A DNA stretch of 64,000 bases. It comes from Alphaproteobacteria bacterium (GTDB lineage Bacteria; Pseudomonadota; Alphaproteobacteria; JAJTHO01; CANGXP01). Shown in pieces: positions 13,815 through 63,843 of the stretch. Location: the NCBI GenBank assembly GCA_947457935.1, contig CANGXP010000002.1, forward strand, positions 47,701 through 111,700, read 5' to 3'. The notes beneath the pieces are model-generated. The model saw only the letters and a list, made by a program, of their open reading frames with translations. It was not told the DNA's origin and made no database searches. Each line of letters starts with the position of its first letter. Positions within the stretch are counted from its first letter, which is position 1. A program made the translations under genes and the position numbers.

Positions 13815-15296
13815 TTACGCAGATTTTTTCAAACCCGCATCGCGTTGCATCCCCCATGCAATGTTCCCTGTAACCAAGGCTTCTTGCGCCTTTCGCACCG
13901 TCGCCGTTGCATCAGAAGCATCACCCGTGCGGGTGGCAAGGCGTTCTAGGGCAACATCCAGCGGTGTATCTAGCCAAATCCCTGTAAACGGCACGCCGCA
14001 ACGCTGTGCAAGGGCTTCAATCGCGGTGCGTTCTTCTTCAGCGGCAAATACTGCATCCACAATCACCGCATATCCTGCCTTTAACGCTATTTCTGTATCG
14101 CTATAGAGAGCCTTATAAACGGCGGCACTGGCTTCTTTTGTATAGCTTTCAGGAGCAAGGCGCGTTGTCTCAGACACACCCGCAAGACGCTTCCGAATAC
14201 TATCAGAGCGAATCACTACCGCGCCATTTTCCGCCGCAGTTGCCGCAGCCAGCGTTGATTTGCCACTGCCAGACAATCCGCCAATCGCGGTAAGGCTTGC
14301 CGTTTGGGGTTTAAGATAGCTCAAGGCCTGCGCCAGATAGGCTTTCGCATCCTGAAAGAAAAATGCTTGGGTATCCGCATCAGGAATGCTCTGCATAATC
14401 GCGATACTCACATGAGAGCGAATCGCCGCGCGGGTGGCAAGCATCACAGGCAATACGGCAAGTGCCTCATACTCGCCCGTTTGCGCGAGATAGCTATTGC
14501 GAACCAGCGTTGCGTATTGCGGCAAGCCGCGCTTGTCTAAGTCCATCAGCAAAAACGCAAGGTCATACAGCACATCAATAACGGCGAATGCATCGTTAAA
14601 TTCGATGCAGTCAAACAACAATGGATCATCATTATAGAGGCAAATATTTTGTAGGTGCAAATCGCCGTGACACTGTCGGATTTTGCCGTTTTCAGCCCGA
14701 TTATTCAATAAGGCTTGTTGTGTAGAAATCATGCTCAAACTGGCTGTTGTCAAGGCTTCCGTCTGTTCGCGGGGTAAAAATTCGGCATAGCTCGCAAACA
14801 TGGCATCATTGCCCTTAACCGTGTTCGCCAATATTTCCGCGCCTTTCAGCCCTGTTTTGTCGATTTCTGCCGTTTGGTGAAAATGCACAATCTTCGCTGT
14901 AATCGCCTGCATTTGTGCGGGTGTCAGCTTGCCTTCTGCCGCGAGCACATCAAACGTTGCCCCCTTATCAAAGCAGTGCATCACCACAAAATATTCTGCG
15001 ATGTCTCCAGATCCGCCCCACGCAAAGCCTTCAGCCGTTTTGTTCAGTGTTTCCACACCAACATATAAATCTGGCGCAGTGCGGCGGTTTAGCTCAATCT
15101 CCCGCGCACAAAAAGTTGCGCGTTTTTCCAATGTTGAATAATCCATATACGGATATGCAACAGGCTTTTTCATTTTATAGGCACGAGAGCCGCACAAATA
15201 AACGATTGCGCCGTGTGTCTCTATTTTCTCAACCGTTGCGGGTTTATGCGGGTAATTGGCAGGGTTTAACAGGAATTGGTCAAGATTGTGAGACAT
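13815..15296 (-). CDS. Two-domain putative kinase: N-terminal aminoglycoside-phosphotransferase-like (APH/Ser-Thr kinase fold) domain fused to a C-terminal P-loop (AAA_33/gluconate-kinase-like) domain
   Basis: Brenner motif HGDLHLQNI in the N-domain and Walker A GGLSGSGKSTLA in the C-domain. The start is ambiguous: the ORF track starts at 15428, and I chose the internal Met at 15296 (MSHNLDQF...). Confidence 0.55.
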   Translation of the reverse strand: MSHNLDQFLLNPANYPHKPATVEKIETHGAIVYLCGSRAYKMKKPVAYPYMDYSTLEKRATFCAREIELNRRTAPDLYVGVETLNKTAEGFAWGGSGDIAEYFVVMHCFDKGATFDVLAAEGKLTPAQMQAITAKIVHFHQTAEIDKTGLKGAEILANTVKGNDAMFASYAEFLPREQTEALTTASLSMISTQQALLNNRAENGKIRQCHGDLHLQNICLYNDDPLLFDCIEFNDAFAVIDVLYDLAFLLMDLDKRGLPQYATLVRNSYLAQTGEYEALAVLPVMLATRAAIRSHVSIAIMQSIPDADTQAFFFQDAKAYLAQALSYLKPQTASLTAIGGLSGSGKSTLAAATAAENGAVVIRSDSIRKRLAGVSETTRLAPESYTKEASAAVYKALYSDTEIALKAGYAVIVDAVFAAEEERTAIEALAQRCGVPFTGIWLDTPLDVALERLATRTGDASDATATVRKAQEALVTGNIAWGMQRDAGLKKSA

Positions 15297-15371
15297 TGTG
15301 CAATACTTTCTATTGGCATACCTATAGTCGTTCCTTGCAAACAGGGCAACTTGTTTGGTACAAATCGCGCT

Positions 15372-15923
15372 ATGCAATGTAAACCCTTGTCCATCCCTGA
15401 TGTAAAACTCCTCACCCCTAAAAAACATGGCGATGAAAAGGGTTTTTCCTCAGAGACGTATAATCGTGAAATTTTTGCGATTGGCGGTATTACGGTTGAT
15501 TTTGTGCAGGATAATCACCTCTATTATGCGCAACAGGGCATATTGCGAGGGTTGTACTTTCAAGAACCGCCGTTTGCCCAAGCAAAACTGGTGCGCGTGG
15601 TGCGCGGCGCAATTTGGGATGTGGCGGTGGATATCCGCCATGGCTCACCCACCTTTGGGCAATGGGTAGCGGCGGAATTATCGGCGGAGAATTGGCAGCA
15701 ACTGTATATTCCCATTGGGTTTGCACATGGTTTTGTAACATTAGAGCCTGATACGGAAGTGTGCTATAAAACCAGCAATTATTATTCTCCTGCCCATGAT
15801 GGCGGGATTTTATGGTCTGATGCGAGTCTAAATATTCCGTGGAATGTTAGTAATCCTATTTTATCTGCAAAAGACTCGAGACTGCCGCTATTGCGGGACT
15901 TAGAACCGATTTTCGGAGTGTAA
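15372..15923 (+). CDS. rfbC: dTDP-4-dehydrorhamnose 3,5-epimerase
   Basis: RmlC cupin motifs (IPDVKLLTPKKHGDEKGFSSETY...QDNHLYYAQQGILRGLYFQ...AHGFVTLEPDTEVCYKTSNYY). The start is at the internal Met. rfbA, rfbB and rfbD are not nearby. Confidence 0.75.
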   Translation: MQCKPLSIPDVKLLTPKKHGDEKGFSSETYNREIFAIGGITVDFVQDNHLYYAQQGILRGLYFQEPPFAQAKLVRVVRGAIWDVAVDIRHGSPTFGQWVAAELSAENWQQLYIPIGFAHGFVTLEPDTEVCYKTSNYYSPAHDGGILWSDASLNIPWNVSNPILSAKDSRLPLLRDLEPIFGV

Positions 15924-22140: not shown

Positions 22141-22608
22141 CTAAGCAGCACGGATGATTTTTTCCATCTGCTGCACATCTTTCGCGGAGTCTTGCGTTTG
22201 TGCGCGGAGTAATTGTTCTGTTGCTTTTAAGGCAAGAGCAACAGCCACAGCACGAATTTCTTGCGTTGCGCGTTGCTCTGCACGCGCAATTTTTTCCATA
22301 GCGCGTTGCTTTTGCGCTGCCATGTCTTTATCCAGTGCTTCTAACGCTTCTTTTTGCAAGAACAGCGCATCGCGCTCTGCTTGCTCAATGAGACGCTTCA
22401 TATCACTAGCTTGTTCTTTTTGTTGCTTTTTAAAAGACTCAAGTAATGCTTGCGCTTCTTCATGCAGCGTTTTTGCGTCATCGAGTTTTTTGCCAACCCC
22501 GACTGCATAGCCATCAAGCGTGTTTACAACGGAGCGGATGAGAGGACGCGCTACAGCCGCTATAAACGTGAAAAAGGCAACAGAATAAAGAATTTTTGTG
22601 CTGTCCAT
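22141..22608 (-). CDS. atpF: F0F1 ATP synthase subunit b
   Basis: 155 aa with an N-terminal TM helix and a long charged coiled-coil tail. It is the last gene of the atpI-B-E-F'-F F0 operon. Confidence 0.75.
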   Translation of the reverse strand: MDSTKILYSVAFFTFIAAVARPLIRSVVNTLDGYAVGVGKKLDDAKTLHEEAQALLESFKKQQKEQASDMKRLIEQAERDALFLQKEALEALDKDMAAQKQRAMEKIARAEQRATQEIRAVAVALALKATEQLLRAQTQDSAKDVQQMEKIIRAA

Positions 22609-22611
22609 CGC

Positions 22612-23115
22612 CTAACTCGCTAATTTTTGATAATCGTTTGTTACAACGCGGACGCTATCGCGCACAGATTGTTGTTGCGCCTGACCACCACTTAATTTTG
22701 CAAAGCATTCTGCAGCAACAACACTCACTGTTTCTTGAATGCTTGCAAACGCTTCATCTCTGGCTGTTTTAATCCGCACTTCTGCAGCGGCGGTTTCAGC
22801 GGCAATTTCAGCATTTAAAGCATTCTGCCTAATAACAACCGTTCTCGCAATGTCCGTCTTCATGTCGTCCATGATTCGCCGTATTTGTTGCTGTGCCTCA
22901 GTTTGATTACTTTCCAGCATTCCTTTGAGTATGGTAGCCTCTTTCTGAAGCTCTCTTGCCTGCTGTAGATCGTTTTCAACGCGTTTTTCTCGCATTTCGA
23001 GAACTGCCTTAATTTTAGGCAGTCCCCGTGTTTTAAGCAAAAAATACAGCGTACTAAATGTTAACAACAACCAAAAAAGTTGTGTCACAAAGGATTCTGG
23101 ATTTAACTGCGGCAT
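22612..23115 (-). CDS. atpF2: F0F1 ATP synthase subunit b-prime
   Basis: Second b-like subunit (TM helix plus coiled coil), as in alphaproteobacterial and photosynthetic F0 operons. The start is placed at the internal Met (MPQLNPESFVTQLFWLLL...). The ORF track starts at 23202. Confidence 0.65.
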   Translation of the reverse strand: MPQLNPESFVTQLFWLLLTFSTLYFLLKTRGLPKIKAVLEMREKRVENDLQQARELQKEATILKGMLESNQTEAQQQIRRIMDDMKTDIARTVVIRQNALNAEIAAETAAAEVRIKTARDEAFASIQETVSVVAAECFAKLSGGQAQQQSVRDSVRVVTNDYQKLAS

Positions 23116-23294
23116 AACAATCCCAACAACACTATTACAGGACTTACGCAGTGCTCGTCTTTTCGGTAATTTTGTTGTCAGAAAATTGCTCAAAATGCTC
23201 ATTTACGTCTAGTAAACTGCGCTTTTTCCCAAATTTCTTCCTAAAAATTCCTCAAAAATTCATCACCTGCGTAAGTCCTGTAGTCATAAAAAAT

Positions 23295-23519
23295 CTAGCT
23301 TTGTAGCATGACGATCGCAATAACGAAGCAAAGAATGAGTACTAACTCGGTTGCAGCGAAGCCAATAAAGGTCATTGTTTTGAACTTTGGCTCAGCAGAA
23401 GGATTGCGACTTGTTGCATTGATGTAAGAAGAAAAGATATTCCCCAAACCAAGACCAACGCCAAGAGCGGCAAACATTGCAATACCAGCGCCAATGAATT
23501 TTGCTGCTACGGGATCCAT
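23295..23519 (-). CDS. atpE: F0F1 ATP synthase subunit c
   Basis: 74-aa proteolipid with a GxGxGxG region (GAGIAMFAALGVGLGLGNIF) and a conserved carboxylate helix. Confidence 0.85.
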   Translation of the reverse strand: MDPVAAKFIGAGIAMFAALGVGLGLGNIFSSYINATSRNPSAEPKFKTMTFIGFAATELVLILCFVIAIVMLQS

Positions 23520-23549
23520 AAGATATTCTCCAAATTTAAAAGTTAAAGG

Positions 23550-24278
23550 TTAATGTAATTCTAAAGCATCTTTAATATAGACGCAGGTAAGCAATGAAAA
23601 GATATATGCTTGAACGCACGCTATAAAAAACTCAAACGCTATTATCGCAAGTGATAGCACAAACGGAAACACGGCAATCGCCATACCCGCCGACACAGTC
23701 ATTGCGATAATAACTTTTAAAACAATGTGTCCTGCCATCATGTTTGCAAAAAGTCGCAAAGAAATTGTTACAGGTCTCATGCAATAAGAGAACATTTCTA
23801 TCGGTGCGAGTAAAATCAAAACATACCAAGGAACGCCATGCGGTGCAAACAGCCTAAAGAAATGCAACCCGTGCTTAACAAACCCTAGTATGGTCACAAA
23901 TAAAAACACCAACATCGCTAACGCGAACGTAACAATAATATGGCTTGTGAAGGTAAAAGCAAACGGAAACATGCCAAACAGGTTGCCAAACAAAATAAAG
24001 GCAAACAGGCTAAATACTAACGGGAAATAGGAGGCGGCGCCCTTCCCTGCTGTGTCTGTTACAAGGGAATGCACGAAAGAATAAAACAGCTCTCCTGCTG
24101 ACTGTAACCGATTAGGGATAAGTGCCTGCTTTCGCCCTGCGAACGATGTTAATAACAGCGTCATCACAACGGAAACCACCATTGCCAGAGAAGAGTTGGT
24201 AAAAGACACATCAAACCCAGCCAGCTTTGGCAGTTCTATCAGAGTTTTAATCTCAAATTGGTGTAGCGGGCTGCTCAC
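23550..24278 (-). CDS. atpB: F0F1 ATP synthase subunit a
   Basis: 242-aa polytopic protein with the conserved subunit-a arginine helix (ISLRLFANMMAGH). Confidence 0.85.
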   Translation of the reverse strand: MSSPLHQFEIKTLIELPKLAGFDVSFTNSSLAMVVSVVMTLLLTSFAGRKQALIPNRLQSAGELFYSFVHSLVTDTAGKGAASYFPLVFSLFAFILFGNLFGMFPFAFTFTSHIIVTFALAMLVFLFVTILGFVKHGLHFFRLFAPHGVPWYVLILLAPIEMFSYCMRPVTISLRLFANMMAGHIVLKVIIAMTVSAGMAIAVFPFVLSLAIIAFEFFIACVQAYIFSLLTCVYIKDALELH

Positions 24279-24283
24279 AAAAA

Positions 24284-24580
24284 CTACTCTTGATGTTCTT
24301 CAGGGGGTTCTTTGCTTAAACGGAGCACATTCATAATGCCAGTTCCCAATCCAATCAAGATAAAAATCAAGGTGAACAACGGCATCAACGAAAAATATTT
24401 ATCCAGCCATATCCCCAACGCCCCACCAACGCCAATCGGCGCTATAAATTCAATCATAATTTGGGTTGTCTTGCCCGTTCCCTTTAGGTTTGGGTGGCTA
24501 AACTGCGACTCGGTTACTTCTGCATCCGCGATTTTACGCGCGAGGACGTCGAGCGGGTCTTTATTTTCACCCTGAGACAT
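24284..24580 (-). CDS. atpI: ATP synthase protein I (AtpI/AtpZ-like small membrane protein)
   Basis: 98-aa two-helix membrane protein immediately upstream of atpB. Confidence 0.55.
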   Translation of the reverse strand: MSQGENKDPLDVLARKIADAEVTESQFSHPNLKGTGKTTQIMIEFIAPIGVGGALGIWLDKYFSLMPLFTLIFILIGLGTGIMNVLRLSKEPPEEHQE

Positions 24581-34990: not shown

Positions 34991-36577
34991 ATGACCGCTC
35001 CCAAAGTTCTGATTTCCGATAAACTCAGCCCCCGCGCTATTGAAATTTTTAAAGAGCGCGGCATTGTTGCCGATGTAAAAACAGATTTAACCCCTGAACA
35101 ACTGAAAGCCTGTATTGGTGAGTATGCAGGGCTGGCGATTCGCTCAAACACCAAAGTCACCAAAGAAATTATTGAAGCAGCAAGCAACCTTAAAGTGATT
35201 GGTCGGGCAGGGATTGGGATTGATAACGTGGATGTACCCGCTGCCACCGCCAAAGGCATTGTGGTAATGAACACGCCGTTTGGCAATTCCATCACCACGG
35301 CAGAACACGCTATCGCTATGATGTTTGGCTTAGCAAGACAACTCCCTGCTGCCAATGCGTCAACCCATGCAGGGAAATGGGAAAAATCTCGTTTTATGGG
35401 CGTGGAAGTGACAGGAAAAACGCTAGGGATTATTGGCTGCGGCAACATTGGCGCGATTGTGGCAGATAGAGCCGTCGGGCTTAAAATGAAAGTCGTGGCG
35501 TTTGACCCCTATTTGTCAAAAGAACGCGCCGATGACCTTGGCATTGAGAAAGTTGAGACCATTGAGGAGCTATTGCCTCGCGCTGATTTCATCACGCTGC
35601 ACACGCCTTTAACTGAAAAAACAAAAGGTATTTTAGACGCAAAAAACCTCGCTAAATGCAAAAAAGGCGTGCGGATTGTAAACTGTGCCCGTGGTGGCTT
35701 GATTGTTGAAGCAGACCTCAAAGCCGCCTTAGACAGCGGCCATGTTGCAGGCGCGGCACTCGATGTATTTGACATTGAACCTGCCAAAGAAAACGTGTTG
35801 TTTGGGGATGAGCGCGTTATTGCCACCCCGCATTTGGGTGCATCAACCAGTGAAGCACAAGAAAATGTGGCGTTGCAAGTGGCAGAACAAATTTCCGATT
35901 TCTTGCTGACAGGGGCGGTTACCAACGCGCTCAACATGCCGTCTGTGAGTAGCGAAGAAGCCATTCGCTTGAAGCCTTACATGAAACTGGCAGAAATGTT
36001 GGGCAGCTTTGCAGGGCAAATTACCGAGACGGGCATCAAGTCTATCTCTCTTGAATACAGCGGCGCGGTAACAAAGCTGAACACCAAGCCTCTCACTTCT
36101 ATCACTGTTTCTGCCCTGCTCTCCCCGTTATTAGATTCTGTGAATGTCGTGAATGTTATGATGGTGGCAAAGCAACGTGACATTAACATCAGCGAAACAA
36201 AACACAGCAAGCATGAAGACTCTGCCGAGTTTGTGAAGCTCACTGTGCATACAGATAAGCGGTCACGCTCTGTGACAGGTAAAGTGTTTGCGCCTGATAG
36301 TGCTCGTATTATTGATATTGAAGGCATCGCGATTGAAGCCGAGTTAGGCAAACACATTCTATTCGTGCGTAACAATGACAAACCCGGTTTCATTGGGCGT
36401 TTAGGGTCAACCTTGGGCGATGCGAATATCAATATCGCCACCTTCACTTTGGGGCGCGTTGCCGCAGGGGAAGACGCGATTGCGCTGATTGAAGTTGACC
36501 AAGAAATAACCCCCGATATTTTGGAAAAAGTAAAGACTATCAAAAATGTGGTACAGGCAAGTGTTCTCCGCTTCTAA
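34991..36577 (+). CDS. serA: D-3-phosphoglycerate dehydrogenase (long form with ASB and ACT regulatory domains)
   Basis: 528 aa. Contains the NAD-binding GxGxxG (GIIGCGNIGAIVA) and a D-isomer 2-hydroxyacid dehydrogenase catalytic region. Confidence 0.85.
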   Translation: MTAPKVLISDKLSPRAIEIFKERGIVADVKTDLTPEQLKACIGEYAGLAIRSNTKVTKEIIEAASNLKVIGRAGIGIDNVDVPAATAKGIVVMNTPFGNSITTAEHAIAMMFGLARQLPAANASTHAGKWEKSRFMGVEVTGKTLGIIGCGNIGAIVADRAVGLKMKVVAFDPYLSKERADDLGIEKVETIEELLPRADFITLHTPLTEKTKGILDAKNLAKCKKGVRIVNCARGGLIVEADLKAALDSGHVAGAALDVFDIEPAKENVLFGDERVIATPHLGASTSEAQENVALQVAEQISDFLLTGAVTNALNMPSVSSEEAIRLKPYMKLAEMLGSFAGQITETGIKSISLEYSGAVTKLNTKPLTSITVSALLSPLLDSVNVVNVMMVAKQRDINISETKHSKHEDSAEFVKLTVHTDKRSRSVTGKVFAPDSARIIDIEGIAIEAELGKHILFVRNNDKPGFIGRLGSTLGDANINIATFTLGRVAAGEDAIALIEVDQEITPDILEKVKTIKNVVQASVLRF

Positions 36578-36675
36578 TACCAAACCCATTAAATTCCTGC
36601 AATTTTGCTGCGCCACACCATCGGCTTCAGTCATTGGCGTTGAGCCAACTCCATTCAGCCTCGGCTCGCTCACAA
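36576..36675 (-). repeat. Interspersed mosaic repeat, copy D: reverse orientation, module-2 start fused to module-3 end, immediately after the serA stop
   Basis: Plus strand TAATACCAAACCCATTAAATTCCTGCAATTTTGCTGCGCC is the reverse complement of the copy-A end GCGCAGCCGAATAGCAGGAATTTAATGGGCTTGGTATTA. The far end reads GTGAGCGAG (compare ATGAGCGAG of module 2). Confidence 0.6.
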
Positions 36676-36692
36676 AAATTTCAGAAATTTTC

Positions 36693-37781
36693 TTGGGTTG
36701 GTATAAGGTACTTGGCGGCGCATTATTTGCACTATGCGTTTATGGCGCAGGGGATTCTGCATCCATCGCCGCTGATTCTTTTAAAGTGGGGGATGCAACC
36801 TATTCGGTGGTTATCCAACAGCCCCTCACGCCACTGGTGGGGCTGGGAATACACAACACTATCCCTCAAAAAATAGTGGGGTTTGACCGCAATAACAAGG
36901 TGTATAGCCTAGAGGCATTGATTGGCACGTTGGTGCTAACACCCCTTAAGGACTTTGCGCCTGTTCCCCAACCCCTCTTAAAAGATAAGGTGGAAAACAG
37001 CGCGGTGAGCTATGGCAAAACCGAAATACAGTATGCGTATTTTGCGGATACTGTGGAGGGTGCTTTCTCCCCCATCCTCGGTAAACTCCCCGTGGGCAGA
37101 ACGCTTGTTGCAACCTTAAAAAATGGTGCAGATGTACGGTTTTCACTGCCAGCAGGATATGTGTATGAAAACACTGCCCCTGTTGTGATTGATCTCAATA
37201 ATGACGGGTTAGAGGAAATTGTTGTAACCGAAACCAACACGCAAACGGGAACGTCTGTGCTGGGGTTGTATATCACCGTTGAGGGGCGATTAAAGCGAAT
37301 GGCAAACTCCCCCGCTTTGCCACAACAAGGGCACTGGGTGGATGCACTAGGGACGCTTGATTGGCAGGAAGACGGCAAGCCCTCAATTTTGGCGATTGAA
37401 GCCCCCAACATCAACGGATTCTTGCAGTTTTACGGCATGAAAAACGGCAAAATGGAGAGTGTGCGGCGGGAATATGGCTATTCTAGCAGAATCGTTGGCA
37501 CGCCCTTAGCCCCAACACTGTTGCTTGCAGATATGGACGACAACGGCACACAAGAGCTGATGATACCGCGCAACAGCATGGATGCTCTTGCTATTTTAAG
37601 TTTCACAAAAGGGCTGATGACACGCCTGTATGAAACGGATTTACCTGCCCCGATTGCCTCTGCCTTTTATATTGCCTACACTGCCCCCCCCGAAAATCCA
37701 AAAAGGGCTGTGCATAGTATTGCATTCTTTTTGCGGGATGGGCAAATTGCGCTGATAACACGCGTACAGAAAGCACAATAG
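36693..37781 (+). CDS. Secreted hypothetical protein with FG-GAP/VCBS-like repeats
   Basis: Asp-rich repeat motifs VVIDLNNDGLEEIVVTE and LLADMDDNGTQELMIP. The start is uncertain. The ORF track starts at 36546, but that N-terminal part is occupied by an interspersed repeat copy. I suggest a TTG at 36693, which gives a signal-peptide-like N-terminus GWYKVLGGALFALCVYGAG. Confidence 0.4.
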   Translation: MGWYKVLGGALFALCVYGAGDSASIAADSFKVGDATYSVVIQQPLTPLVGLGIHNTIPQKIVGFDRNNKVYSLEALIGTLVLTPLKDFAPVPQPLLKDKVENSAVSYGKTEIQYAYFADTVEGAFSPILGKLPVGRTLVATLKNGADVRFSLPAGYVYENTAPVVIDLNNDGLEEIVVTETNTQTGTSVLGLYITVEGRLKRMANSPALPQQGHWVDALGTLDWQEDGKPSILAIEAPNINGFLQFYGMKNGKMESVRREYGYSSRIVGTPLAPTLLLADMDDNGTQELMIPRNSMDALAILSFTKGLMTRLYETDLPAPIASAFYIAYTAPPENPKRAVHSIAFFLRDGQIALITRVQKAQ

Positions 37782-37784
37782 CGC

Positions 37785-38921
37785 ATGACACAGCCCCCCT
37801 CCGCACTGCTCCCCGCTGGCGTTCACGATTATTTGCCCGAGACGGCACGTCAACGCTACAGTGTTGCCCACAGTCTGCTCACCACCTTTCAACAATACGG
37901 CTATGACCTTGTGTTGCCGCCGTTGGTGGAATTTGAGCAATCGTTACTCCCTGCTATGGGTAATAATTTGAGCAGCAATACTTTTAGGGTGATGGATTCG
38001 CTCTCCCATGAAATGATGGCACTCCGCGCCGACATAACCCCCCAAATTGCGCGTATTGCCACAACCCGCTTGCACAAACAACCCCGCCCCTTACGGCTTT
38101 GTTATGCAGGGGAAGTGTTGCGCCTCAGTGGCTCTGATTTGAATTATGAACGGCAATCTCTGCAAACAGGCATTGAACTTGTGGGACACGCAGGCATCAC
38201 CGCCGATGCAGAAGTGATTACTCTTGCAACACAAGCCTTACAAGCCGTTGGCGTAAAAGATATAACCGTGGATTTAACCATCCCGCCGTTGCTCACCGTG
38301 CTGGCTGATACGTTTGGGTTAGACACAGCCACTCGCACAGCTTTGTTTATTGGGCTAGAACGAAAGGAAACAGGGGTTCTAGAAGCGCTTTCTCCTGATG
38401 CAAAAGCCTGTTTTCAGCAAGTATTGCGATTTGTGGGCAACAGCAAATCCTTGCCGATTGCGACGTTGTTAGAGGTATTCCCCAAAGAAGCAGCCCCGTT
38501 GTTGCAGAATTTACAGGCATTGATTGCCGCCCTAGAAAACGTGCCCAGCATCAACACAATAACAGTTGATATGACCGAACAACGCGGTTTTCTCTATCAT
38601 AGCAGCGTGTGCTTCTCCCTGTTTGCTAACGGGTTTCGCGGCGAAATTGGACGCGGTGGACGCTATGTTGTGGGCGAGGCACGCGAGCCCGCTGTGGGCT
38701 TTAGTGTGTATATTGACCCGCTGTTGCGTTCTCTCCCTGCTTTACAGCCTGTCGTAAAGATTCTTATTCCGCAGAATCTCCCCTTACAAAAACAAGATGA
38801 ATTAATCGCCCAAGGCTGGCGGTTAGCAAGACATTTACAGGAGACACCGCTCAGTGCTGCAACGGCAGTGGCACAGGGGTGTGCGGCGTGGTATGATGGC
38901 AACGCCATTCAAAAGAGGTAA
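37785..38921 (+). CDS. hisZ: ATP phosphoribosyltransferase regulatory subunit HisZ (HisRS-like, no anticodon-binding domain)
   Basis: 378 aa with class-II aaRS-like motifs (LRLCYAGEVLR, GGRYD-like GRGGRYV). The length fits HisZ rather than HisS. No hisG follows. Confidence 0.65.
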   Translation: MTQPPSALLPAGVHDYLPETARQRYSVAHSLLTTFQQYGYDLVLPPLVEFEQSLLPAMGNNLSSNTFRVMDSLSHEMMALRADITPQIARIATTRLHKQPRPLRLCYAGEVLRLSGSDLNYERQSLQTGIELVGHAGITADAEVITLATQALQAVGVKDITVDLTIPPLLTVLADTFGLDTATRTALFIGLERKETGVLEALSPDAKACFQQVLRFVGNSKSLPIATLLEVFPKEAAPLLQNLQALIAALENVPSINTITVDMTEQRGFLYHSSVCFSLFANGFRGEIGRGGRYVVGEAREPAVGFSVYIDPLLRSLPALQPVVKILIPQNLPLQKQDELIAQGWRLARHLQETPLSAATAVAQGCAAWYDGNAIQKR

Positions 38922-38925
38922 AGTT

Positions 38926-39555
38926 ATGCATATTTTGAGTCATCGCGGATACTGGCAAGCCCCCTCAGAAAAAAATACAGCGGAAGCATTCCATCGCTCT
39001 TTTGCTTTGGGTTTTGGTACAGAAACAGATTTTCGTGACTGTAACGGCGGTCTGGTTATTGCCCATGACTGCCCAACACAGGATTCGATGCCTGCTGCAA
39101 CATTCTTTGAGATTTATAACAGCTATTCCTTGGATGTTCCTCTTGCTCTCAATATTAAGTCAGATGGACTGCAATCACTGTTGAAACAAGCATTAGATAA
39201 CGCGAACATCCCTCATTACTTTGTGTTTGATATGTCAGTTCCCGATATGCTGCACTATCAACGTGCTGGCATGCCCTACTACACACGCCAGAGTGATATT
39301 GAGACAGAATTGGTGCTATATGAAAACGCCACAGGGGTATGGTTAGACAGTTTTGGGGCGGAAGACTGGATTGCAGAATCGACTATCGCAATGCATCTTG
39401 AAGCAGGAAAATCTGTATGTGTTGTGTCCCCCGATTTGCATAAACGGGCACATCTTCCCTTCTGGCAACGTTTGAAGGGCTTTTCCTGTTTACAGGACTC
39501 ACGCCTTATGCTCTGTACGGATTATCCAGAACAAGCGCGGGAGTTTTTTCGGTGA
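38926..39555 (+). CDS. Glycerophosphodiester phosphodiesterase-like (GDPD/GP-PDE family) protein
   Basis: N-terminal HRGYW...EKNTAEAFHRSFALGFGTETDFRDCNGGLVIAHD pattern (HR..ENT..AF..A...G.E.D....DG..V..HD) of GDPD enzymes. An AAGAGG Shine-Dalgarno lies 7 nt upstream of the ATG. It is the first gene of a 5-gene overlapping cassette. Confidence 0.5.
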   Translation: MHILSHRGYWQAPSEKNTAEAFHRSFALGFGTETDFRDCNGGLVIAHDCPTQDSMPAATFFEIYNSYSLDVPLALNIKSDGLQSLLKQALDNANIPHYFVFDMSVPDMLHYQRAGMPYYTRQSDIETELVLYENATGVWLDSFGAEDWIAESTIAMHLEAGKSVCVVSPDLHKRAHLPFWQRLKGFSCLQDSRLMLCTDYPEQAREFFR

Positions 39556-40199
39556 CAATTAAAGCCGTAATTTTTGATATGGACGGCGTGCTGATTGATG
39601 CCAAAGACTGGCATTATGAAGCCCTTAATCGTGCCCTTGCCCTGTTTGGATATGAAATTAGCCGTTATGATCACCTCGTCACATACGATGGGCTACCTAC
39701 CGCCAAGAAACTTGATATGTTGACGCTGGAAAGGGGACTCCCCAAAGGACTGCATCGCTTTTTGAATGACTTAAAACAAAAATACACGATGGAAATTATA
39801 CACGCGCAGTGTAAGCCAACATTTGCGCATGAATATGCTTTGTCACGACTAAAAGCCGAGGGCTACAAACTCGCTATTGCCTCTAATTCTGTGCGCAATA
39901 CTGTTGAAAGCATGATGGAAAAAAGCATGTTGCGCCCCTATCTTGAACTTCTTTTATCTAACCAAGATGTTAAAAAAGGCAAACCCGATCCTGAAATTTA
40001 CACAACCTCTATTGAGAAATTGGGGCTAACTCCCTCAGAATGCTTAGTGGTTGAAGATAATCCCCACGGGATTAAAGCAGCCAGAGATGCAGGGGCGCAT
40101 GTTATGGTGGTGCAAACAGTTTATGATGTTCATTACACCGCCATTAAACAGGAAATTGCAAAAGCAACCGCGTTGAATAACGAGGGTGTTGCAGCATGA
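39552..40199 (+). CDS. HAD-superfamily subfamily IA hydrolase (beta-phosphoglucomutase-like phosphatase)
   Basis: Motif I VIFDMDGVLIDA, motif III K (KKGKPDP) and motif IV (VVEDNPHGIKAARDAG). It overlaps its neighbours by 4 nt at both ends. Confidence 0.7.
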   Translation: MTIKAVIFDMDGVLIDAKDWHYEALNRALALFGYEISRYDHLVTYDGLPTAKKLDMLTLERGLPKGLHRFLNDLKQKYTMEIIHAQCKPTFAHEYALSRLKAEGYKLAIASNSVRNTVESMMEKSMLRPYLELLLSNQDVKKGKPDPEIYTTSIEKLGLTPSECLVVEDNPHGIKAARDAGAHVMVVQTVYDVHYTAIKQEIAKATALNNEGVAA

Positions 40200-40969
40200 G
40201 TGCCTCTAAACTCAATGTTCTCATCCTGATGGCAGGGTCTAGCAAGTCCTTTAAGGAAGCAGGTCATATATACCCCAAAATGCTGCTAGAAATAGATGGT
40301 AAGTCTCTTGTTGAACACGTTATTGCTTCTTATGGATCGTTGGTCTCTGAGGAAGTAAACTTAACTTTTGTGATACGCAAAGAAGACAACCAAGCCTTCC
40401 ATCTTGGCACTGTCATAAAATTATTAATGCCTGATGCCACAATCCTTGAAGTAGGCGGCACAACGGCTGGGGCTGCCTGCACCGCTCTTCTTGCGATTGA
40501 TAATATTAATACAAACGATGCGCTCCTTATTCTCAATGGCGATCAAATTTTGCACACTGACTTGGGCGCGATTGTTAAAAAATTTCACACACAACAATGG
40601 GATGGCGGGATTGTGACATTTCGGGCTGTGCACCCTAAATGGTCGTACGTCAAAGCAAATGTAGATGGCTTCGTCATTGAAGCAGCGGAGAAACGCCCCA
40701 TCAGCAATAGAGCAACAGCAGGAGTCTATTACTTCAAAAAAGGGGCTGATTTTGTCGAAGCAGCAACCAGCATGATCGTGAAAGATGCGCATGTGGACGG
40801 GGCATTTTATGTCTGCCCCTGTTATAATGAAATGATTTTACGTCAAAAAACGATAGGAACGCACGAAATAAGCGCGAAACAATACCTTTCTATCATAACA
40901 CCCCAAGCCTTACAGGCACTAGAAGAAGCTGTTAATACGGGAAAGGTGCGCCTTTATGAAGCTGCATAA
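40196..40969 (+). CDS. Sugar/alcohol-phosphate nucleotidyltransferase-like protein (NTP_transferase GT-A fold), paralogue 1
   Basis: N-terminal LILMAGSSKSF...PKMLLEIDGKSLVEH nucleotide-binding loop and clear paralogy to the 41306-42052 product (HPKWSYVK../DPKWSFVR.., AGVYYFKKGADFV/VGIYNFTRGADFV, FYVCPCYNEMI/FYVAPVYNQMI). Confidence 0.5.
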   Translation: MSASKLNVLILMAGSSKSFKEAGHIYPKMLLEIDGKSLVEHVIASYGSLVSEEVNLTFVIRKEDNQAFHLGTVIKLLMPDATILEVGGTTAGAACTALLAIDNINTNDALLILNGDQILHTDLGAIVKKFHTQQWDGGIVTFRAVHPKWSYVKANVDGFVIEAAEKRPISNRATAGVYYFKKGADFVEAATSMIVKDAHVDGAFYVCPCYNEMILRQKTIGTHEISAKQYLSIITPQALQALEEAVNTGKVRLYEAA

Positions 40970-41279
40970 ACTAAATGAGATGACACGCGGCTGGTTTGTG
41001 GGAGACTTCACGCCCAGCCTCTATCAAACACAAGATGTTGAGGTTGCCATCCAGCATTTTGCAGCAGGCACGGTGGAGGCAGAGCATTATCACGCCATTG
41101 CAACGGAGATTACCGTTATCGTCAGTGGCGAAGCAGAAATGCAGGGTCGTCGTGTTAAAGCAGGTGATATTGTTGTCATTGAACCCAAGGAAATTACGGG
41201 TTTTACAGCTATTACAGATGTGACAACAGCCGTTGTAAAACTCCCCGGAGCAAAAAATGACAAATATCTCGCGTTGTAA
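40956..41279 (+). CDS. Small cupin-fold protein
   Basis: 107 aa with a His-containing cupin motif region (AAGTVEAEHYHAIATEITVIVSGEAEM...GDIVVIEP). It overlaps the upstream gene by 14 nt. Confidence 0.45.
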   Translation: MKLHKLNEMTRGWFVGDFTPSLYQTQDVEVAIQHFAAGTVEAEHYHAIATEITVIVSGEAEMQGRRVKAGDIVVIEPKEITGFTAITDVTTAVVKLPGAKNDKYLAL

Positions 41280-41305
41280 ACACAAAAAGATAAGGATATT
41301 GAGCA

Positions 41306-42052
41306 GTGATTAATATTGTTGTCCCCATGGCAGGCCATGGAAGTCGCTTTTCTAAGGCGGGCTACACACTACCCAAACCCCTTATTCCCGTGGCTGGCGT
41401 GCCCATGATCAAAGGAGTAATTGCCAACCTTACCCCACAAATACCACATCGATTTATTTTTATCTGCCAAGCGACACACCTAGCAAATTATGGTCTATCG
41501 GAAAACCTTCGCCAGTGGGCAAAAAATTGCGTTATTCTTTCTGTTGATAGCGTAACAGAGGGAGCAGCCTGCACTGTATTATTAGCAGAAAAATTCATCA
41601 ATAATGAAGATCCGTTGATGATTGCAAATTGTGACCAGTATGTAGACGTAAATATTGACGCGTATCTAGAGGCACAACAAGGATTCTCGGGGTTAATGAT
41701 GACCATGAAGGCAGCTGATCCTAAATGGTCTTTTGTACGCTTTGATGAATCAGGAAAAATCATAGAAGTAGTAGAAAAAGAGGTTGTATCTGATGAAGCT
41801 ACAGTGGGGATCTATAATTTTACACGGGGCGCAGATTTTGTGGTCGCAGCAAAAAAAATGATTGCACAAAATTTACGTGTTAAGGGTGAATTTTATGTTG
41901 CACCTGTGTATAATCAAATGATAGCGCACGGTGCAAAAATAGGCATTTATAATATTGGTACAGTGAACAACGGAATGTATGGCTTAGGAACACCTGAAGA
42001 TTTAGAGGTCTTTTTGAATTTACCCATAGCAACCGTTTTTGCTGCTGCATAA
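41306..42052 (+). CDS. Sugar/alcohol-phosphate nucleotidyltransferase-like protein, paralogue 2
   Basis: VVPMAGHGSRFSKAGYTLPKPLIPVAGVPMI N-terminal loop. Paralogous to the 40196-40969 product. Confidence 0.5.
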   Translation: MINIVVPMAGHGSRFSKAGYTLPKPLIPVAGVPMIKGVIANLTPQIPHRFIFICQATHLANYGLSENLRQWAKNCVILSVDSVTEGAACTVLLAEKFINNEDPLMIANCDQYVDVNIDAYLEAQQGFSGLMMTMKAADPKWSFVRFDESGKIIEVVEKEVVSDEATVGIYNFTRGADFVVAAKKMIAQNLRVKGEFYVAPVYNQMIAHGAKIGIYNIGTVNNGMYGLGTPEDLEVFLNLPIATVFAAA

Positions 42053-42067
42053 ATAAGGTATAGAAAA

Positions 42068-43360
42068 ATGAGTAATGTCACCGTAATCGGCGCACAGTGG
42101 GGCGATGAAGGCAAAGGAAAAATCGTTGATTGGTTGTCTGAACGCGCCGATGTGGTCGTGCGTTTCCAAGGCGGTCACAACGCAGGGCACACGCTGGTGG
42201 TTGATGGCGTGACCTATAAACTGCATTTGTTGCCCTCTGGCGTGGTGCGCCCGAATAAGCTGGCGGTGATCGGCAATGGCGTGGTGCTTGACCCATGGGC
42301 ATTGTTCACCGAAATTGCCACGGTGCAGCAACAGGGCATTGAGATTACGTCTGAACGCCTCCGTATAGCAGAGAACGTGCCGCTGATTCTCCCTGTGCAT
42401 GTGTTGAGTGACAAGGCGCGGGAAGCGGCACGCGGCAGCAGCAAAATTGGCACCACAGGGCGCGGTATTGGCCCTGCGTATGAAGACAAAGTGGCGCGGC
42501 GTGCCATTCGCTTGTGTGACTTGGCACATCCCGCCACCTTGGCAGATAAACTCCAGCCCCTTGTTGACCACCACAACGCGTTGTTGCGCGGTTTTGGCGC
42601 AACGGAAGCAAATGCAGCAGAGATTCTTCAGCAGCTCCTAGAAATAGCCCCGAAACTATTGCCTTATGCCAGTCCTGTGTGGAAATTGCTCAATGAAAAA
42701 CAACAGCAAAACCAGCGCATTTTGTTTGAGGGCGCACAAGGCATTATGCTGGATATTGATCACGGCACCTATCCGTTTGTAACGTCCTCTAACACCGTGC
42801 CAGCGGCTGCAACGTCGGGCAGCGGGATGAGTCCCCAAGCAGTCGGCTATATTCTTGGCATTACCAAGGCGTATACAACGCGGGTGGGCAGTGGGCCTTT
42901 CCCCACAGAGCAACTTAATGCTGACGGCGAGCGCATGGGCGAACGCGGGCATGAGTTTGGCACTACCACAGGGCGCAAACGTCGTTGCGGATGGTTTGAT
43001 GCGGTGATGGTGCGGCAAGCTGCAAAAATCACGGGCATGAATGGTATGGCACTCACCAAGCTTGATGTGCTGGATGGCTTTGAAACCCTGCCTATTTGCG
43101 TTGGCTATGATTATAACGGCACGGTGTTAGACTATCTCCCCGCTGCCCCTGAAGTACAAGCCGCCGTAAAACCTATTTATGAAATGATGGCGGGATGGGG
43201 CGAGAATACCAGCGGTATTCGCAACTGGAACGACCTCCCCAAACAAGCACAAGAATATGTGCGGCGCATTGAGGCATTAACAGAAACCCCTGTGGCGTTG
43301 CTCTCCACAAGCCCAAAACGGGAAGATACAATGCTGATGATTGACCCGTTTGGGGGGTGA
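42068..43360 (+). CDS. purA: Adenylosuccinate synthetase
   Basis: GDEGKGK P-loop ([12 protein letters not shown]), GGHNAGHT and [11 protein letters not shown] motifs. 430 aa. Confidence 0.9.
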
Positions 43361-53957: not shown

Positions 53958-54899
53958 TTATTCTATTTCTATTTCTACCCCCTCTTTTTCAGATTGCTTG
54001 GTTAGGTAAATCACGAGGTCTTCTCTGTCTGCCTTTCCAATTGGCTCCTTGGTATCTTTATATGTTAATCTAGAAACGTATGTAGCCTCAGAGGCAAGAT
54101 ACCAACTTTCTTCCTTAGGCAATCGAATAATTCTACCTCGATATTCTAGAAGTACATAGAATCTATCAGAGAAGAACCAATTAAAATTATGATGTGTTGA
54201 GGCATCTGGTGTCAGCTCAACATCATCAAAAACTTCATGGCTATCAAAATAATTAGCTTTATCGTGATATTCTATGCATAAAATTTCTTCTTGCGCGACA
54301 ACTAACCCCTCGAAAGTACTCTCAACATAAAGCTCTATTTCGTCTTCAAGCATATGGTTAATTGAAAAAATCCTATTTTGGATATTTTCACCAGATGTTT
54401 CTTCTTTTATAAACCAACCCGTGTCTACTCTGAAAATATAATATTGAAGAGGAAAATTTTCTTTTGCATGATCATCCCATAGTCTGTAGAAAAATAAGGA
54501 TCTTTTAAAATTTTCTATAATCTCTTTTTTATCCACTTCGCTGGGCGGCGTTTCATAGCGTTCTTTGATTGCTTGAGTAAAGTTAGATATTTTCTCCCTT
54601 GGCTTGTCAAAAGTGTAGTTGTCAGCTTTTAATTCAAGGACATCGCAAAATTCTACAAATGTTCCGATGAAGTCTTTTTCAACAAAGTTGCTCCATTTCT
54701 GATATAATTCAAATCTTCTCATACATGAGCGTCTCAATATATCGCTGGTAAGATAGCGCATCTCCGAATCTATTTTGTCTATATCTTCCTTTATGTTGAA
54801 GAATATCGATTGATCTTCTAACGCGTTTGTAGTGTCAATACTGGTTATCGCATCGTTAATATCTTTTAGACGCTGGATATATTCTTCTGGTTTAAACAT
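53958..54899 (-). CDS. AT-rich orphan hypothetical protein: acidic, cytoplasmic, 313 aa
   Basis: Long ORF in a segment with clearly lower GC than the surroundings. It is on the same strand as asd, 25 bp downstream of it. I recognise no motif. Confidence 0.4.
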   Translation of the reverse strand: MFKPEEYIQRLKDINDAITSIDTTNALEDQSIFFNIKEDIDKIDSEMRYLTSDILRRSCMRRFELYQKWSNFVEKDFIGTFVEFCDVLELKADNYTFDKPREKISNFTQAIKERYETPPSEVDKKEIIENFKRSLFFYRLWDDHAKENFPLQYYIFRVDTGWFIKEETSGENIQNRIFSINHMLEDEIELYVESTFEGLVVAQEEILCIEYHDKANYFDSHEVFDDVELTPDASTHHNFNWFFSDRFYVLLEYRGRIIRLPKEESWYLASEATYVSRLTYKDTKEPIGKADREDLVIYLTKQSEKEGVEIEIE

Positions 54900-62418: not shown

Positions 62419-63843
62419 TTAACCTTTACGCTTCAGCAAGCCGTCTCTCACCCCCAATATATTGAGGGCAACAGCACTTACCCCATATAAACCGCCGCCC
62501 ACCAAAATTTTCACCACAAGAGACAGGGTGAGTGAGGGAAGGTGTACAAAATAAAGCCCCCCTGCCATAACACCCGTTGCAAGTATAATCTTTGCAATGC
62601 CCAACAGCGGCAGGGGCAACGGAAACACGCGCCGTGCTGCCCAGAATGTAATCACAATCGAAAAGCTATACGCCAGCACGCCCGCATATACCGCACCCAT
62701 TAAACCATAAATGGGGATGAGTGCATAGTTTGCACCAATGTGAAAAAGGGCGGCAGGGACAAGCACATACAATAAGATTTTATTCTTTTTAGCGAGCTGA
62801 AAACTATGGTCAATATAGTGTGCCTTTAGTCCAAACAAGAACGTGCTAAGGGCAACCCACGGCATGATGGCAATCGCCTCTGTGCGGAATTGTGCGCCTA
62901 AGAACACCGTTGCCATTTCAGGAGCGAGCATCCCGAAACCCACAGCAGCAGGAAGCCCCAAGCCGAAAATCCACAACGCGTTTTTCTCTAACTGTGCCTT
63001 CATTTTTTCAGGAGATTCTTGTTCTATTGTTTTTACCGCCAGTGGATGCGATGCCATCACGATAATCATAAACACCGAAAGAATCGCCTGTTCTGCCAGG
63101 CTATAGGCGGCAGAATATAAGCCTACCGCTTCACTGCCCAGCAAATCTTGCAAGATGAAGCGGCTGCCCTTGGAAATGCTAAATCCGAGAATTGACACCA
63201 GCATAATTGCCCAGCCATAGCTCCAAATCTCGCGCATGGTGGCGCGGGTTGCATTTGACAGCGCAAGAAATTTCACAACATTTTTCCTGTCTGCAACCAA
63301 CAGCACGGCATAGCCCAACATTTGCCCGATGATAACCATCTCGGGACTTGGTGAAATGAGGTAGAGAAAACCAATGGCAAACCCCGCACTTAACAACGCT
63401 TGCAGCGTTGCGAGCAGGCTATATTTTTTACTCTCCAATGTTGCCATATGGGAACGGAGCGTGAGCAATTGCAAACTAAATAAGACAAATTGCGGGATGG
63501 TGATCAACAATACAACACGCTGTATGCTTGGCTCCCAAAAGCCCCATAATATCGCCGTCCCGCCGATGACTGTTATCAAAACAGTGACTAAATACCACGC
63601 CCCGCAACTTGCGAGCAGCCGCTTTGTTGCCGTCTCATCAGGGCACGCCGCATGAAGACGCATAATCGCAGCACACAACCACTGACTAAAAAAATTCTGT
63701 CCCGCATTCATCACCGCCGTTGCAAGTGCGAGGTAGCCGTAATTCTCGACACTCAAAACACGCGTAAAGACTGCCACCGTGAGCAGCGACAACACGGCGG
63801 GAATAATTTGCGACGGGGCGTAACGAAGAATATGTTTAAGCAT
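62419..63843 (-). CDS. Polysaccharide/O-antigen flippase of the MOP superfamily (Wzx/PST-like)
   Basis: 474 aa, about 12-14 predicted TM helices, N-terminal polysaccharide-biosynthesis-protein-like region. Confidence 0.55.
   Translation of the reverse strand: MLKHILRYAPSQIIPAVLSLLTVAVFTRVLSVENYGYLALATAVMNAGQNFFSQWLCAAIMRLHAACPDETATKRLLASCGAWYLVTVLITVIGGTAILWGFWEPSIQRVVLLITIPQFVLFSLQLLTLRSHMATLESKKYSLLATLQALLSAGFAIGFLYLISPSPEMVIIGQMLGYAVLLVADRKNVVKFLALSNATRATMREIWSYGWAIMLVSILGFSISKGSRFILQDLLGSEAVGLYSAAYSLAEQAILSVFMIIVMASHPLAVKTIEQESPEKMKAQLEKNALWIFGLGLPAAVGFGMLAPEMATVFLGAQFRTEAIAIMPWVALSTFLFGLKAHYIDHSFQLAKKNKILLYVLVPAALFHIGANYALIPIYGLMGAVYAGVLAYSFSIVITFWAARRVFPLPLPLLGIAKIILATGVMAGGLYFVHLPSLTLSLVVKILVGGGLYGVSAVALNILGVRDGLLKRKG

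Follow-up and report, generated by a model that had tools for sequence, protein, structure and literature searches.

What is made by a cassette of five tightly packed genes lying between hisZ and purA, and do these genes belong to one pathway at all? The question arises from a 64,000-nt stretch of the genome of an Alphaproteobacteria bacterium (contig CANGXP010000002.1; the whole stretch is referred to here as the window), in which the cassette occupies positions 38926-42052 of the plus strand. We consider it probable that the cassette is one conserved, horizontally transferred operon module supplying a nucleotide-linked sugar for a surface glycan (O-antigen, capsule or exopolysaccharide), here inserted between hisZ and purA and co-transcribed with them. 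Nucleotide-sugar and glycan-precursor operons are a known kind of system; the combination of enzymes in this one corresponds to no pathway described so far. The five open reading frames (ORFs) and their two flanking genes are as follows, NT1 and NT2 denoting the two nucleotidyltransferase paralogues.

38926 to 39555, plus strand: ORF1, 209 amino acids, a compact cytoplasmic TIM-barrel protein of the glycerophosphodiester phosphodiesterase (GDPD)/PLC-like superfamily, from a family outside Pfam coverage.
39552 to 40199, plus strand: ORF2, 215 amino acids, a HAD subfamily IA hydrolase, beta-phosphoglucomutase/YqaB-like, predicted to be a sugar-phosphate phosphatase or phosphomutase.
40196 to 40969, plus strand: ORF3 (NT1), 257 amino acids, a nucleotidyltransferase-fold paralogue with a degenerate nucleoside triphosphate (NTP)-binding signature.
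40956 to 41279, plus strand: ORF4, 107 amino acids, a minimal cupin of one domain, in which a 2-His/1-Glu metal motif is conserved.
41306 to 42052, plus strand: ORF5 (NT2), 248 amino acids, a canonical-looking sugar-1-phosphate nucleotidyltransferase.
37785 to 38921, plus strand: hisZ, the upstream flank, ATP phosphoribosyltransferase regulatory subunit (tRNA-synt_His, E = 6e-83; hisZ equivalog models rank top).
42068 to 43360, plus strand: purA, the downstream flank, adenylosuccinate synthase (Adenylsucc_synt, E = 3e-179; NF002223, 649 bits, over cutoff).

A preliminary description of this locus, made from the sequence, had reported five ORFs on one strand that overlap or nearly abut, and the coordinates and junctions confirm this. 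Overlaps of 4 nt join ORF1 to ORF2 (39552-39555) and ORF2 to ORF3 (40196-40199), ORF3 and ORF4 overlap by 14 nt, and a gap of 26 nt separates ORF4 from ORF5. The hisZ stop codon (38921) is 4 nt from the ATG of ORF1, and the ORF5 stop (42052) is 15 nt from the ATG of purA. The longest reading frame for ORF1 opens at a GTG (38854) within hisZ; however, the ATG at 38926 is preceded by AGAGG and the N-termini of homologues all read MxILSHRGYW, matching this ATG, which we therefore take as the start. As the junctions overlap or abut, the seven genes from hisZ through the cassette to purA look like one transcription unit. Promoter and terminator scans found nothing exceeding shuffled expectation. 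Pfam and NCBIfam scans bore out the earlier domain calls for the HAD enzyme, the two paralogous nucleotidyltransferases, the cupin and the hisZ and purA flanks. The cassette had also been described as somewhat AT-richer than its flanks, which is correct, though the effect is modest: its GC content is 0.41-0.47 and its GC content at third codon positions (GC3) 0.33-0.43, the latter 1-2.5 standard deviations under the mean of the remaining 43 window genes of at least 450 nt (0.486 ± 0.061).

That the five genes travel as a unit, a point for which a neighbourhood comparison had been proposed, is seen from their distribution. Relatives of ORF1 are encoded in at least 595 species genomes, as found by an ORF1 profile search, and synteny was counted in the 80 best loci, seven of which are ended by contig edges, leaving 73 assessable. 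All five genes are present in 66 of these 73 (approximately 90%), in at least 11 phyla and mostly in the same order. The window order, ORF1 to ORF5, is compact in 56 of the 80 loci and interrupted by inserted DNA in another four; six loci are permuted, in that ORF1 stands last (Akkermansiaceae), ORF4 and ORF5 have changed places, or ORF3 is split, and seven are incomplete inside the contig. One locus (L020) has no cupin. The carriers belong to Chlorobiota, Armatimonadota, Cyanobacteriota (with Melainabacteria), Bacteroidota, Verrucomicrobiota, Planctomycetota, Campylobacterota, Desulfobacterota, Bdellovibrionota, Bacillota and Pseudomonadota, and include the human-associated Campylobacter concisus, Hungatella hathewayi and Oribacterium. 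Median identities to the window proteins are 52, 67, 48, 56 and 59% for ORF1 to ORF5 and are little tied to phylum; among the matches listed, the window genes are nearer to copies from Chlorobiota and Armatimonadota (59-61% for ORF1) than to alphaproteobacterial ones (50-53%). The cassette is also plasmid-borne, on a conjugative Pseudomonas aeruginosa megaplasmid and on a Scandinavium plasmid. Its co-occurrence across phyla, the phylum-independent identities, the lower GC3 and the plasmid copies together point to a functional module that has spread horizontally.

In six loci (L033, L035, L057, L064, L070 and L080) a SnoaL/NTF2-like gene of 111 amino acids (12010-12345 in L064) lies between the ORF3 and ORF4 homologues. 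These loci include Sulfuricurvum, metagenome-assembled genomes (MAGs) of other Epsilonproteobacteria and one Bdellovibrionaceae MAG, and the insert may provide an additional isomerase-type step.

Within the lineage of the window itself the cassette is maintained. Two metagenomic relatives (ORF1 86% and ORF3 94% identical) have an identical hisZ-cassette-purA layout, and the hisZ/ORF1 junction is the same in relatives L089-L091. Against the nearest relatives, the ratio of nonsynonymous to synonymous divergence (dN/dS) is 0.07 for ORF2, 0.10 for ORF5, 0.12 for ORF3 and 0.14 for ORF4, all five genes falling at 0.07-0.14, beside 0.11 for hisZ; synonymous divergence of the cassette is within the range of its flanks. 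All five genes are under purifying selection here. From these ratios, the flank-like synonymous divergence and the shared layout we conclude that the cassette was present in the common ancestor and has been kept by selection. It had been thought to sit where hisG would be expected after hisZ, and this was not supported. A metagenome scan with hisZ for insertion-free relatives found one distant contig (L097), in which purA lies immediately 3' of hisZ, an adjacency that is common in proteobacteria; no hisG is present among the scanned window ORFs. Because hisZ and purA adjoin in L097 and in proteobacteria commonly, we prefer to regard the cassette as having been inserted between two genes that normally adjoin, and not as a replacement of hisG.

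These data bear on the simplest alternative, that the locus is a coincidental adjacency of housekeeping enzymes (UgpQ, a sugar phosphatase, and MobA/IspD/GlmU-type nucleotidyltransferases) or a decaying remnant. Every domain class is indeed common by itself and the annotation names are generic, yet the same five genes recur with their order preserved across at least 11 phyla, their start and stop codons are tightly coupled, and the low dN/dS goes with intact motifs. None of the five proteins reaches a curated NCBIfam equivalog cutoff (RmlA, GlmU, GalU, IspD, MocA, beta-PGM, HxpB and others), so they are not the ordinary MobA, IspD or GlmU orthologues and generic UgpQ whose chance grouping the preliminary description had weighed against a dedicated pathway. 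The synteny and selection data refute coincidence, to which we attach practically no weight, and the view of a dedicated unit stood up on both co-occurrence across phyla and polysaccharide-locus setting.

Full-text literature searches, curated families and functional annotations contained nothing describing the cassette; its genes are currently labelled 'hypothetical', 'HAD phosphatase', 'GT2' and 'cupin' across carriers. Two candidates from the literature, CA_C2195/DUF4910 and jumbo phages, proved unrelated to it. A defence or phage-derived origin was also dropped, since PADLOC defence models gave no match to the five proteins beyond a chance-level E = 0.0075 and 50,697 phage records held no ORF1 homologue.

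The setting of the cassette in other genomes suggests what it may serve. It lies within polysaccharide loci in Capsulimonas, a Chthonomonadaceae MAG, a Chlorobiales MAG and Gemmataceae, where its neighbours are Wzm/Wzt ABC exporters or Wzx, Poly_export, glycosyltransferases of families 1, 2 and 4, methyltransferases and WavE. A count of Pfam families among 135 immediate neighbours at 76 loci puts WavE first (17), then GT1/GT4 (12-13) and GT2 (10), and after these ABC transporters, acyltransferase_3 and methyltransferases. An iterated hidden Markov model placed a WavE-like gene within 7 kb in 31 of the 76 loci, often in two or three copies, and at locus L074 ORF1 stands alone directly after a WavE gene. 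The name WavE derives from the Vibrio cholerae core-oligosaccharide cluster; the core oligosaccharide of V. cholerae contains fructose. A PDB search with the WavE profile found no solved homologue. A blastn search of Escherichia coli genomes with a gammaproteobacterial copy of the cassette gave no match, so that the sugar could not be deduced from the known O- and K-antigen structures of that species.

A soluble protein of approximately 570-600 amino acids with no Pfam match adjoins the cassette at L093 (11391-13166), L094 (4230-5939) and L026 (13841-15646), the carriers being the P. aeruginosa PA83 megaplasmid, the Scandinavium plasmid and Campylobacter concisus; L083, L085 and L068 hold weaker copies, and several MAGs also have it. 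Its central region looks, from its sequence, like a GT-A-type glycosyltransferase.

The two nucleotidyltransferases are 36% identical to each other, and both match NTP_transferase (PF00483, cutoff 21.2), ORF3 at 31.8 bits and ORF5 at 43.5 bits. As judged from their alignments they are not equivalent. The ORF5 family (71 orthologues) conserves PMAGxGSRF...PKPLI, N(S/C)DQ and VEK..VS.EATVGIYNF, and thus has the GxGxR signature, the lysine and the Mg-binding aspartate. In the ORF3 family the N-terminal loop is (P/L)MAGxxxxF in 77 of 77 orthologues, and the second glycine and the arginine of GxGxR are missing, while the PK.L lysine, NGDQ and EKRPIS are retained. To our knowledge, that arginine and second glycine are common to the characterised NTP-using sugar nucleotidyltransferases. 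An AlphaFold model of ORF3, made with database homologues (pLDDT 92.5), has PDB entry 4EVW as its top Foldseek match (E = 9e-21, TM-score 0.79), then GlmU and RmlA (TM-scores of the three, 0.72-0.79); in a sequence search ORF5 also matches 4EVW (E = 1e-21), then RmlA and GlmU. This entry, a 'nucleoside-diphosphate-sugar pyrophosphorylase' from V. cholerae RC9 solved by structural genomics, is the closest solved relative of both proteins (phmmer E = 1.6e-19 for NT1 and 1.1e-21 for NT2; NT1 profile E = 2e-27). It shares with them a length of approximately 250 residues and motifs around WS(F/Y) and AEK.PIS....G.Y.F; it is approximately 25-30% identical, and its own loop, MAGMSSRF, keeps the arginine that NT1 has lost.

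ORF5 carries the NCBI name 'glycosyltransferase family 2 protein'. The corresponding reading of NT1 as a glycosyltransferase, a name also in use at NCBI, was rejected because its model matches nucleotidyltransferases, with no glycosyltransferase in the top 50 Foldseek matches. Nor does either protein exceed the cutoff of the NCBIfam equivalogs for RmlA, GlmU, GalU, ManC, HddC, MurU, glucose-1-phosphate cytidylyltransferase, IspD or MocA. The best models for ORF5, rmlA_long (52.8 bits, cutoff 320) and Arch_glmU, are far under their cutoffs, rmlA_long coming nearest of all, and the mannose-1-phosphate guanylyltransferase model gives NT2 27.6 bits against a cutoff of 440.

These matches weigh on a second alternative, in which the product would be a polyol- or glycerol-phosphate donor or substituent (CDP-glycerol- or CDP-ribitol-like, as for teichoic acids) and ORF1 would supply or trim glycerophosphodiester units. 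The best nucleotidyltransferase matches are to sugar-1-phosphate enzymes, not to polyol-phosphate cytidylyltransferases: those of NT2 are the hexose-1-phosphate enzymes rmlA_long, Arch_glmU and GlmU, and IspD- and MocA-type models match only marginally (E > 0.004) and only NT1. Since NT2 is hexose-1-phosphate-like and the cassette holds no reductase or dehydrogenase, a polyol-phosphate donor is less likely; TagF- and TagB-type transferases were also not seen among the frequent neighbours, and ORF1 itself is unlike canonical GDPDs. We regard this alternative as unlikely. The earlier proposal of an activated sugar or polyol donor for lipopolysaccharide, capsule or another glycoconjugate fits the polysaccharide-locus setting.

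ORF2 is the best-conserved gene of the cassette, its 67% median identity holding across phyla. It matches HAD_2 (E = 4.6e-35, 121.8 bits, cutoff 23.8) and has the HAD core motifs, with DMDGVLID, SNS, GKPDP and VEDN invariant. Scores of 119.1 bits for the TIGR02009 subfamily model (cutoff 153.35) and 93.5 bits for the beta-PGM equivalog TIGR01990 (cutoff 189.4) fall under the cutoffs, so ORF2 is not a beta-PGM orthologue. Its best PDB relatives are the TM1254 sugar phosphatase, beta-PGMs, CbbY and 2-deoxyglucose-6-phosphate phosphatase. ORF4 scores slightly below the Pfam cutoffs for Cupin_2 (25.2 bits, cutoff 27.2) and PF14667 (25.9 bits, cutoff 28.7); His44, His46 and Glu51 (HxH...E) are invariant in 31 orthologues, and a PDB profile search with the cupin alignment returned generic cupins only.

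ORF1 is the most unusual member. It has the TIM-barrel fold of the PLC-like phosphodiesterase type, and no Pfam or NCBIfam family, GDPD models included, matches it at E ≤ 0.01. His6, Arg7, Glu33, Asp35, His47 and Asp48 are invariant in alignments of 40 and of 83 homologues, and the catalytic His-Arg (HRG), the ExD metal ligands and the second His (HD) align with motifs of 3no3 and 1o1z. Compared with GlpQ and UgpQ (Pfam GDPD), ORF1 is only 15-20% identical and approximately 30-40 residues shorter than typical GDPDs, and its operon is of the nucleotide-sugar type, not one for glycerol-phosphate uptake. Where those enzymes have the third metal-ligand glutamate, in the (N)IE(I/L)K strand motif, the ORF1 family has LALNIK with an invariant Asn76, as judged by comparing motifs with the GDPD consensus and not by superposition. 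The family also carries several additional invariant basic residues, and this suggests that the substrate is multiply phosphorylated or is a nucleotide. At E ≤ 1e-30 it comprises 731 clusters (50% identity), nearly all of standalone proteins of approximately 210 residues; the best 150 cluster representatives are all of this form, and no domain fusion offered a Rosetta-stone hint.

Which reactions follow one another, on what substrates and towards what product, we infer from the observed folds, motifs, co-occurrence, gene order, glycan setting and selection. In the proposed scheme the metal-dependent cupin ORF4 would isomerise or epimerise a central sugar phosphate, the beta-PGM-like HAD enzyme ORF2 would shift or remove a phosphate to yield the substrate for activation, and ORF5, with its GxGxR, lysine and aspartate set intact, would convert this sugar phosphate and an NTP to a nucleoside diphosphate (NDP)-sugar. 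ORF3 could be a non-catalytic or regulatory partner of NT2, or could perform a non-canonical nucleotidyl step. ORF1 might form or cleave a phosphodiester beside a free sugar hydroxyl when the sugar phosphate is made; GDPD chemistry consists of phosphodiester cleavage or transfer helped by a neighbouring (vicinal) hydroxyl. Alternatively it may process the donor or the product along with WavE-family transferases, and its linkage to WavE in some loci makes a role at the transfer stage conceivable.

The best-precedented part of this scheme would be the sequence of cupin, HAD enzyme and NT2, by analogy with phosphomannose isomerase, mutase and GDP-mannose pyrophosphorylase. The GDP-mannose route (phosphomannose isomerase, phosphomannomutase and mannose-1-phosphate guanylyltransferase, including the bifunctional ManC, AlgA and XanB cupin-nucleotidyltransferases) likewise joins isomerisation by a cupin with a phosphate shift and a GT-A-fold sugar-1-phosphate nucleotidyltransferase, and we modelled the proposed action of ORF4, ORF2 and ORF5 on it. 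There are differences. ORF4 is instead a standalone cupin of 107 residues with no phosphomannose isomerase family match, and the mutase candidate of the cassette is a HAD-superfamily protein, unlike bacterial ManB, a member of the alpha-D-phosphohexomutase superfamily; ORF1 and NT1 have no counterpart in that route. The CMP-Kdo pathway (KdsD, KdsA, KdsC, KdsB) combines the same four classes of isomerase, TIM barrel, HAD phosphatase and GT-A-fold nucleotidyltransferase. However, ORF1 folds like a GDPD and not like a DAHP/KDO8P synthase (KDO8P synthase reaches only a TM-score of 0.54, E = 1e-3), the isomerase candidate is a cupin and not a SIS-domain protein, and NT2 resembles RmlA and GlmU, not KdsB. 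The combination of enzymes fits no described pathway, in agreement with the earlier failure to match it to a textbook route, and no protein exceeds an equivalog cutoff.

For the idea that NT1 partners NT2, GlgC/GlgD and GMPPB/GMPPA provide precedents. These are pairs of a catalytic and a degenerate sugar nucleotidyltransferase, and, as in the cassette, the paralogous nucleotidyltransferase-fold proteins include one with a degraded N-terminal nucleotide-binding signature. A partnership of this kind is a candidate role for NT1, which is also found without NT2, in loci that hold only ORF1, ORF2 and ORF3.

A distantly analogous, uncharacterised cluster on the E. coli plasmid p5-S1-CAM-01-A (NZ_CP145712.1, L095, 6022-14984) encodes two nucleotidyltransferase-like domains, a HAD hydrolase and a GDPD-like protein that shares 29% identity with ORF1, with GT2 and GtrA genes adjoining. 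There the two nucleotidyltransferase domains are fused in one protein, which suggests that they work together. The cluster has no cupin; instead it encodes a 660-residue PRK/uridine-kinase-family protein and a class II aldolase/adducin-family protein. It also holds a hypothetical protein of 586 residues.

Several observations weigh against a single glycan-precursor module that works in this way. We found no report of an activity, substrate or product for any member of the cassette, and no precedent for the use of a phosphodiesterase in making nucleotide sugars. Neither a function nor a paper is attached to 4EVW, the nearest solved structure, and ORF2 cannot be assigned as mutase or phosphatase from its sequence. 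Both halves of the fused plasmid protein keep GxGxRF. WavE is present at only approximately 40% of loci, and no WavE or glycosyltransferase gene occurs in the window or in the 9 kb that follow its right end, so that the glycan role proposed for this genome is drawn from other genomes. Finally, Pseudanabaena and L092 have loci with ORF1, ORF2 and ORF3 only. Such loci disfavour NT1 as a mere silent partner of NT2, and favour the reading of NT1 as a non-canonical enzyme.

The lack of glycan genes nearby lends some plausibility to a third alternative, in which the cassette here makes a free small metabolite such as a glycoside or compatible solute: an NDP-sugar would be used by NT1, acting as a GT-A-like transferase, to make a glycosyl-phospho-acceptor, which the HAD phosphatase would dephosphorylate. 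A GT-A-fold enzyme paired with a HAD phosphatase is the classic logic of glucosylglycerate, mannosylglycerate, sucrose and trehalose synthesis. The window cassette has only housekeeping neighbours, with no glycosyltransferase, WavE or exporter gene near it, and a few loci (L071) hold ORF1 outside a glycan context. Elsewhere, however, the cassette is overwhelmingly found in glycan loci, and the NT1 model matches 4EVW, GlmU and RmlA, as described above; transferases could, moreover, be encoded elsewhere in the genome. On account of the glycan context and the nucleotidyltransferase-type fold of NT1, this role is disfavoured and seems to us very improbable.

The loci with three genes also raise the possibility that the cassette comprises two sub-modules, with ORF1-ORF2-ORF3 making one activated compound, ORF4-ORF5 making a second, ordinary NDP-sugar in the style of a split phosphomannose isomerase/GDP-mannose pyrophosphorylase, and NT1 being a real enzyme with unusual nucleotide binding. 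ORF1-ORF2-ORF3-only loci occur in GT2-rich clusters (L031, L039, L040, L092). In other loci (L028, L054, L058) ORF1-ORF3 stay together while ORF5 is displaced or ORF4 and ORF5 are swapped, and the cupin is missing at L020. The NT2-like family is also the larger, with more than 7600 matches compared with approximately 3100 for ORF1 and 3600 for NT1, and NT1 is under purifying selection and keeps its Lys, Asp and EK residues. Set against this, the five genes are together at approximately 90% of the assessable loci, NT1 lacks the arginine and second glycine of the NTP signature, and separate transferases for two products are not evident. We think a division of this kind rather unlikely.

One more elaborate route can be envisaged, and is offered as speculation with a low chance of being right. 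Activation might proceed, in a way not described before, via a phosphodiester or cyclic-phosphate intermediate: a nucleotidyl transfer yielding an NDP- or NMP-linked sugar phosphate, re-positioning of the phosphate by the GDPD-fold enzyme with the help of a neighbouring hydroxyl (for example to the anomeric oxygen of a ketose), removal of the other phosphate by the HAD enzyme and a second nucleotidyl transfer yielding the actual glycosyl donor, with WavE proteins as the dedicated transferases. The product would be the donor of a sugar without a known bacterial activated form, perhaps a neutral ketose (fructose and xylulose are examples). The hints for this route, none of them decisive, are the need of GDPD chemistry for a vicinal hydroxyl, the origin of the WavE name in a cluster for a fructose-containing core, the two nucleotidyltransferase domains per system, the ORF2 relatives CbbY, YqaB and HxpB, which act on ketose mono- and bisphosphates, and the PRK-family kinase and class II aldolase/epimerase-family protein of the E. 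coli plasmid cluster; characterised members of the latter two families act on ketose phosphates.

The remainder of the window is a housekeeping region. It contains murJ, an ATP-sulfurylase/APS-kinase fusion, a class III aminotransferase, hsp33, pgi, a lipid A acyltransferase, F0 ATP synthase genes, mutY, pnp, truB, lnt, purF, cvpA, serA, hisZ and the cassette, after which come purA, acs, phoH, miaB, flhA, asd and alr. A 411-residue ORF (36546-37781, plus strand) with only a weak FG-GAP repeat match shares 32 nt with the 3' end of serA and stops 4 nt short of hisZ; the close relatives L089 and L090 have it at the same place (called there at 367 residues), with a dN/dS of 0.15. A lone Wzx-type (Polysacc_synt) flippase gene (62419-63843, minus strand) is found 20 kb downstream of the cassette; it has no glycosyltransferase neighbours, housekeeping genes follow it beyond the window end, and an RmlD/epimerase-like gene lies approximately 3 kb past the window end. 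A D12-class N6-adenine DNA methyltransferase (3063-4127, minus strand) stands beside a 371-residue ORF with no Pfam match (1960-3075, minus strand); both have a GC3 of approximately 0.32, among the lowest in the window, and they are possibly a horizontally acquired restriction-modification pair. The lowest GC3 of the window (0.31) belongs to a 313-residue ORF with no Pfam match in the flhA/asd interval (53958-54899, minus strand). A 537-residue protein (13815-15428, minus strand) has an APH-type phosphotransferase region and, at its C-terminus, an AAA_33/zeta-toxin-like kinase domain. The F0 ATP synthase operon (22141-24580, minus strand) has two b-type subunit genes and an a subunit gene, an arrangement typical of alphaproteobacteria.

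The copy of the cassette in the window is an ordinary instance among thousands, special only in being embedded in a housekeeping operon. Nucleotide-sugar supply modules set which sugars appear on lipopolysaccharides, capsules and exopolysaccharides, and these sugars are targets of phages, antibodies and vaccines. Identification of the product would annotate thousands of genes at once, would probably reveal the donor for the uncharacterised WavE transferase family, and might uncover a new phosphodiester chemistry in sugar activation.

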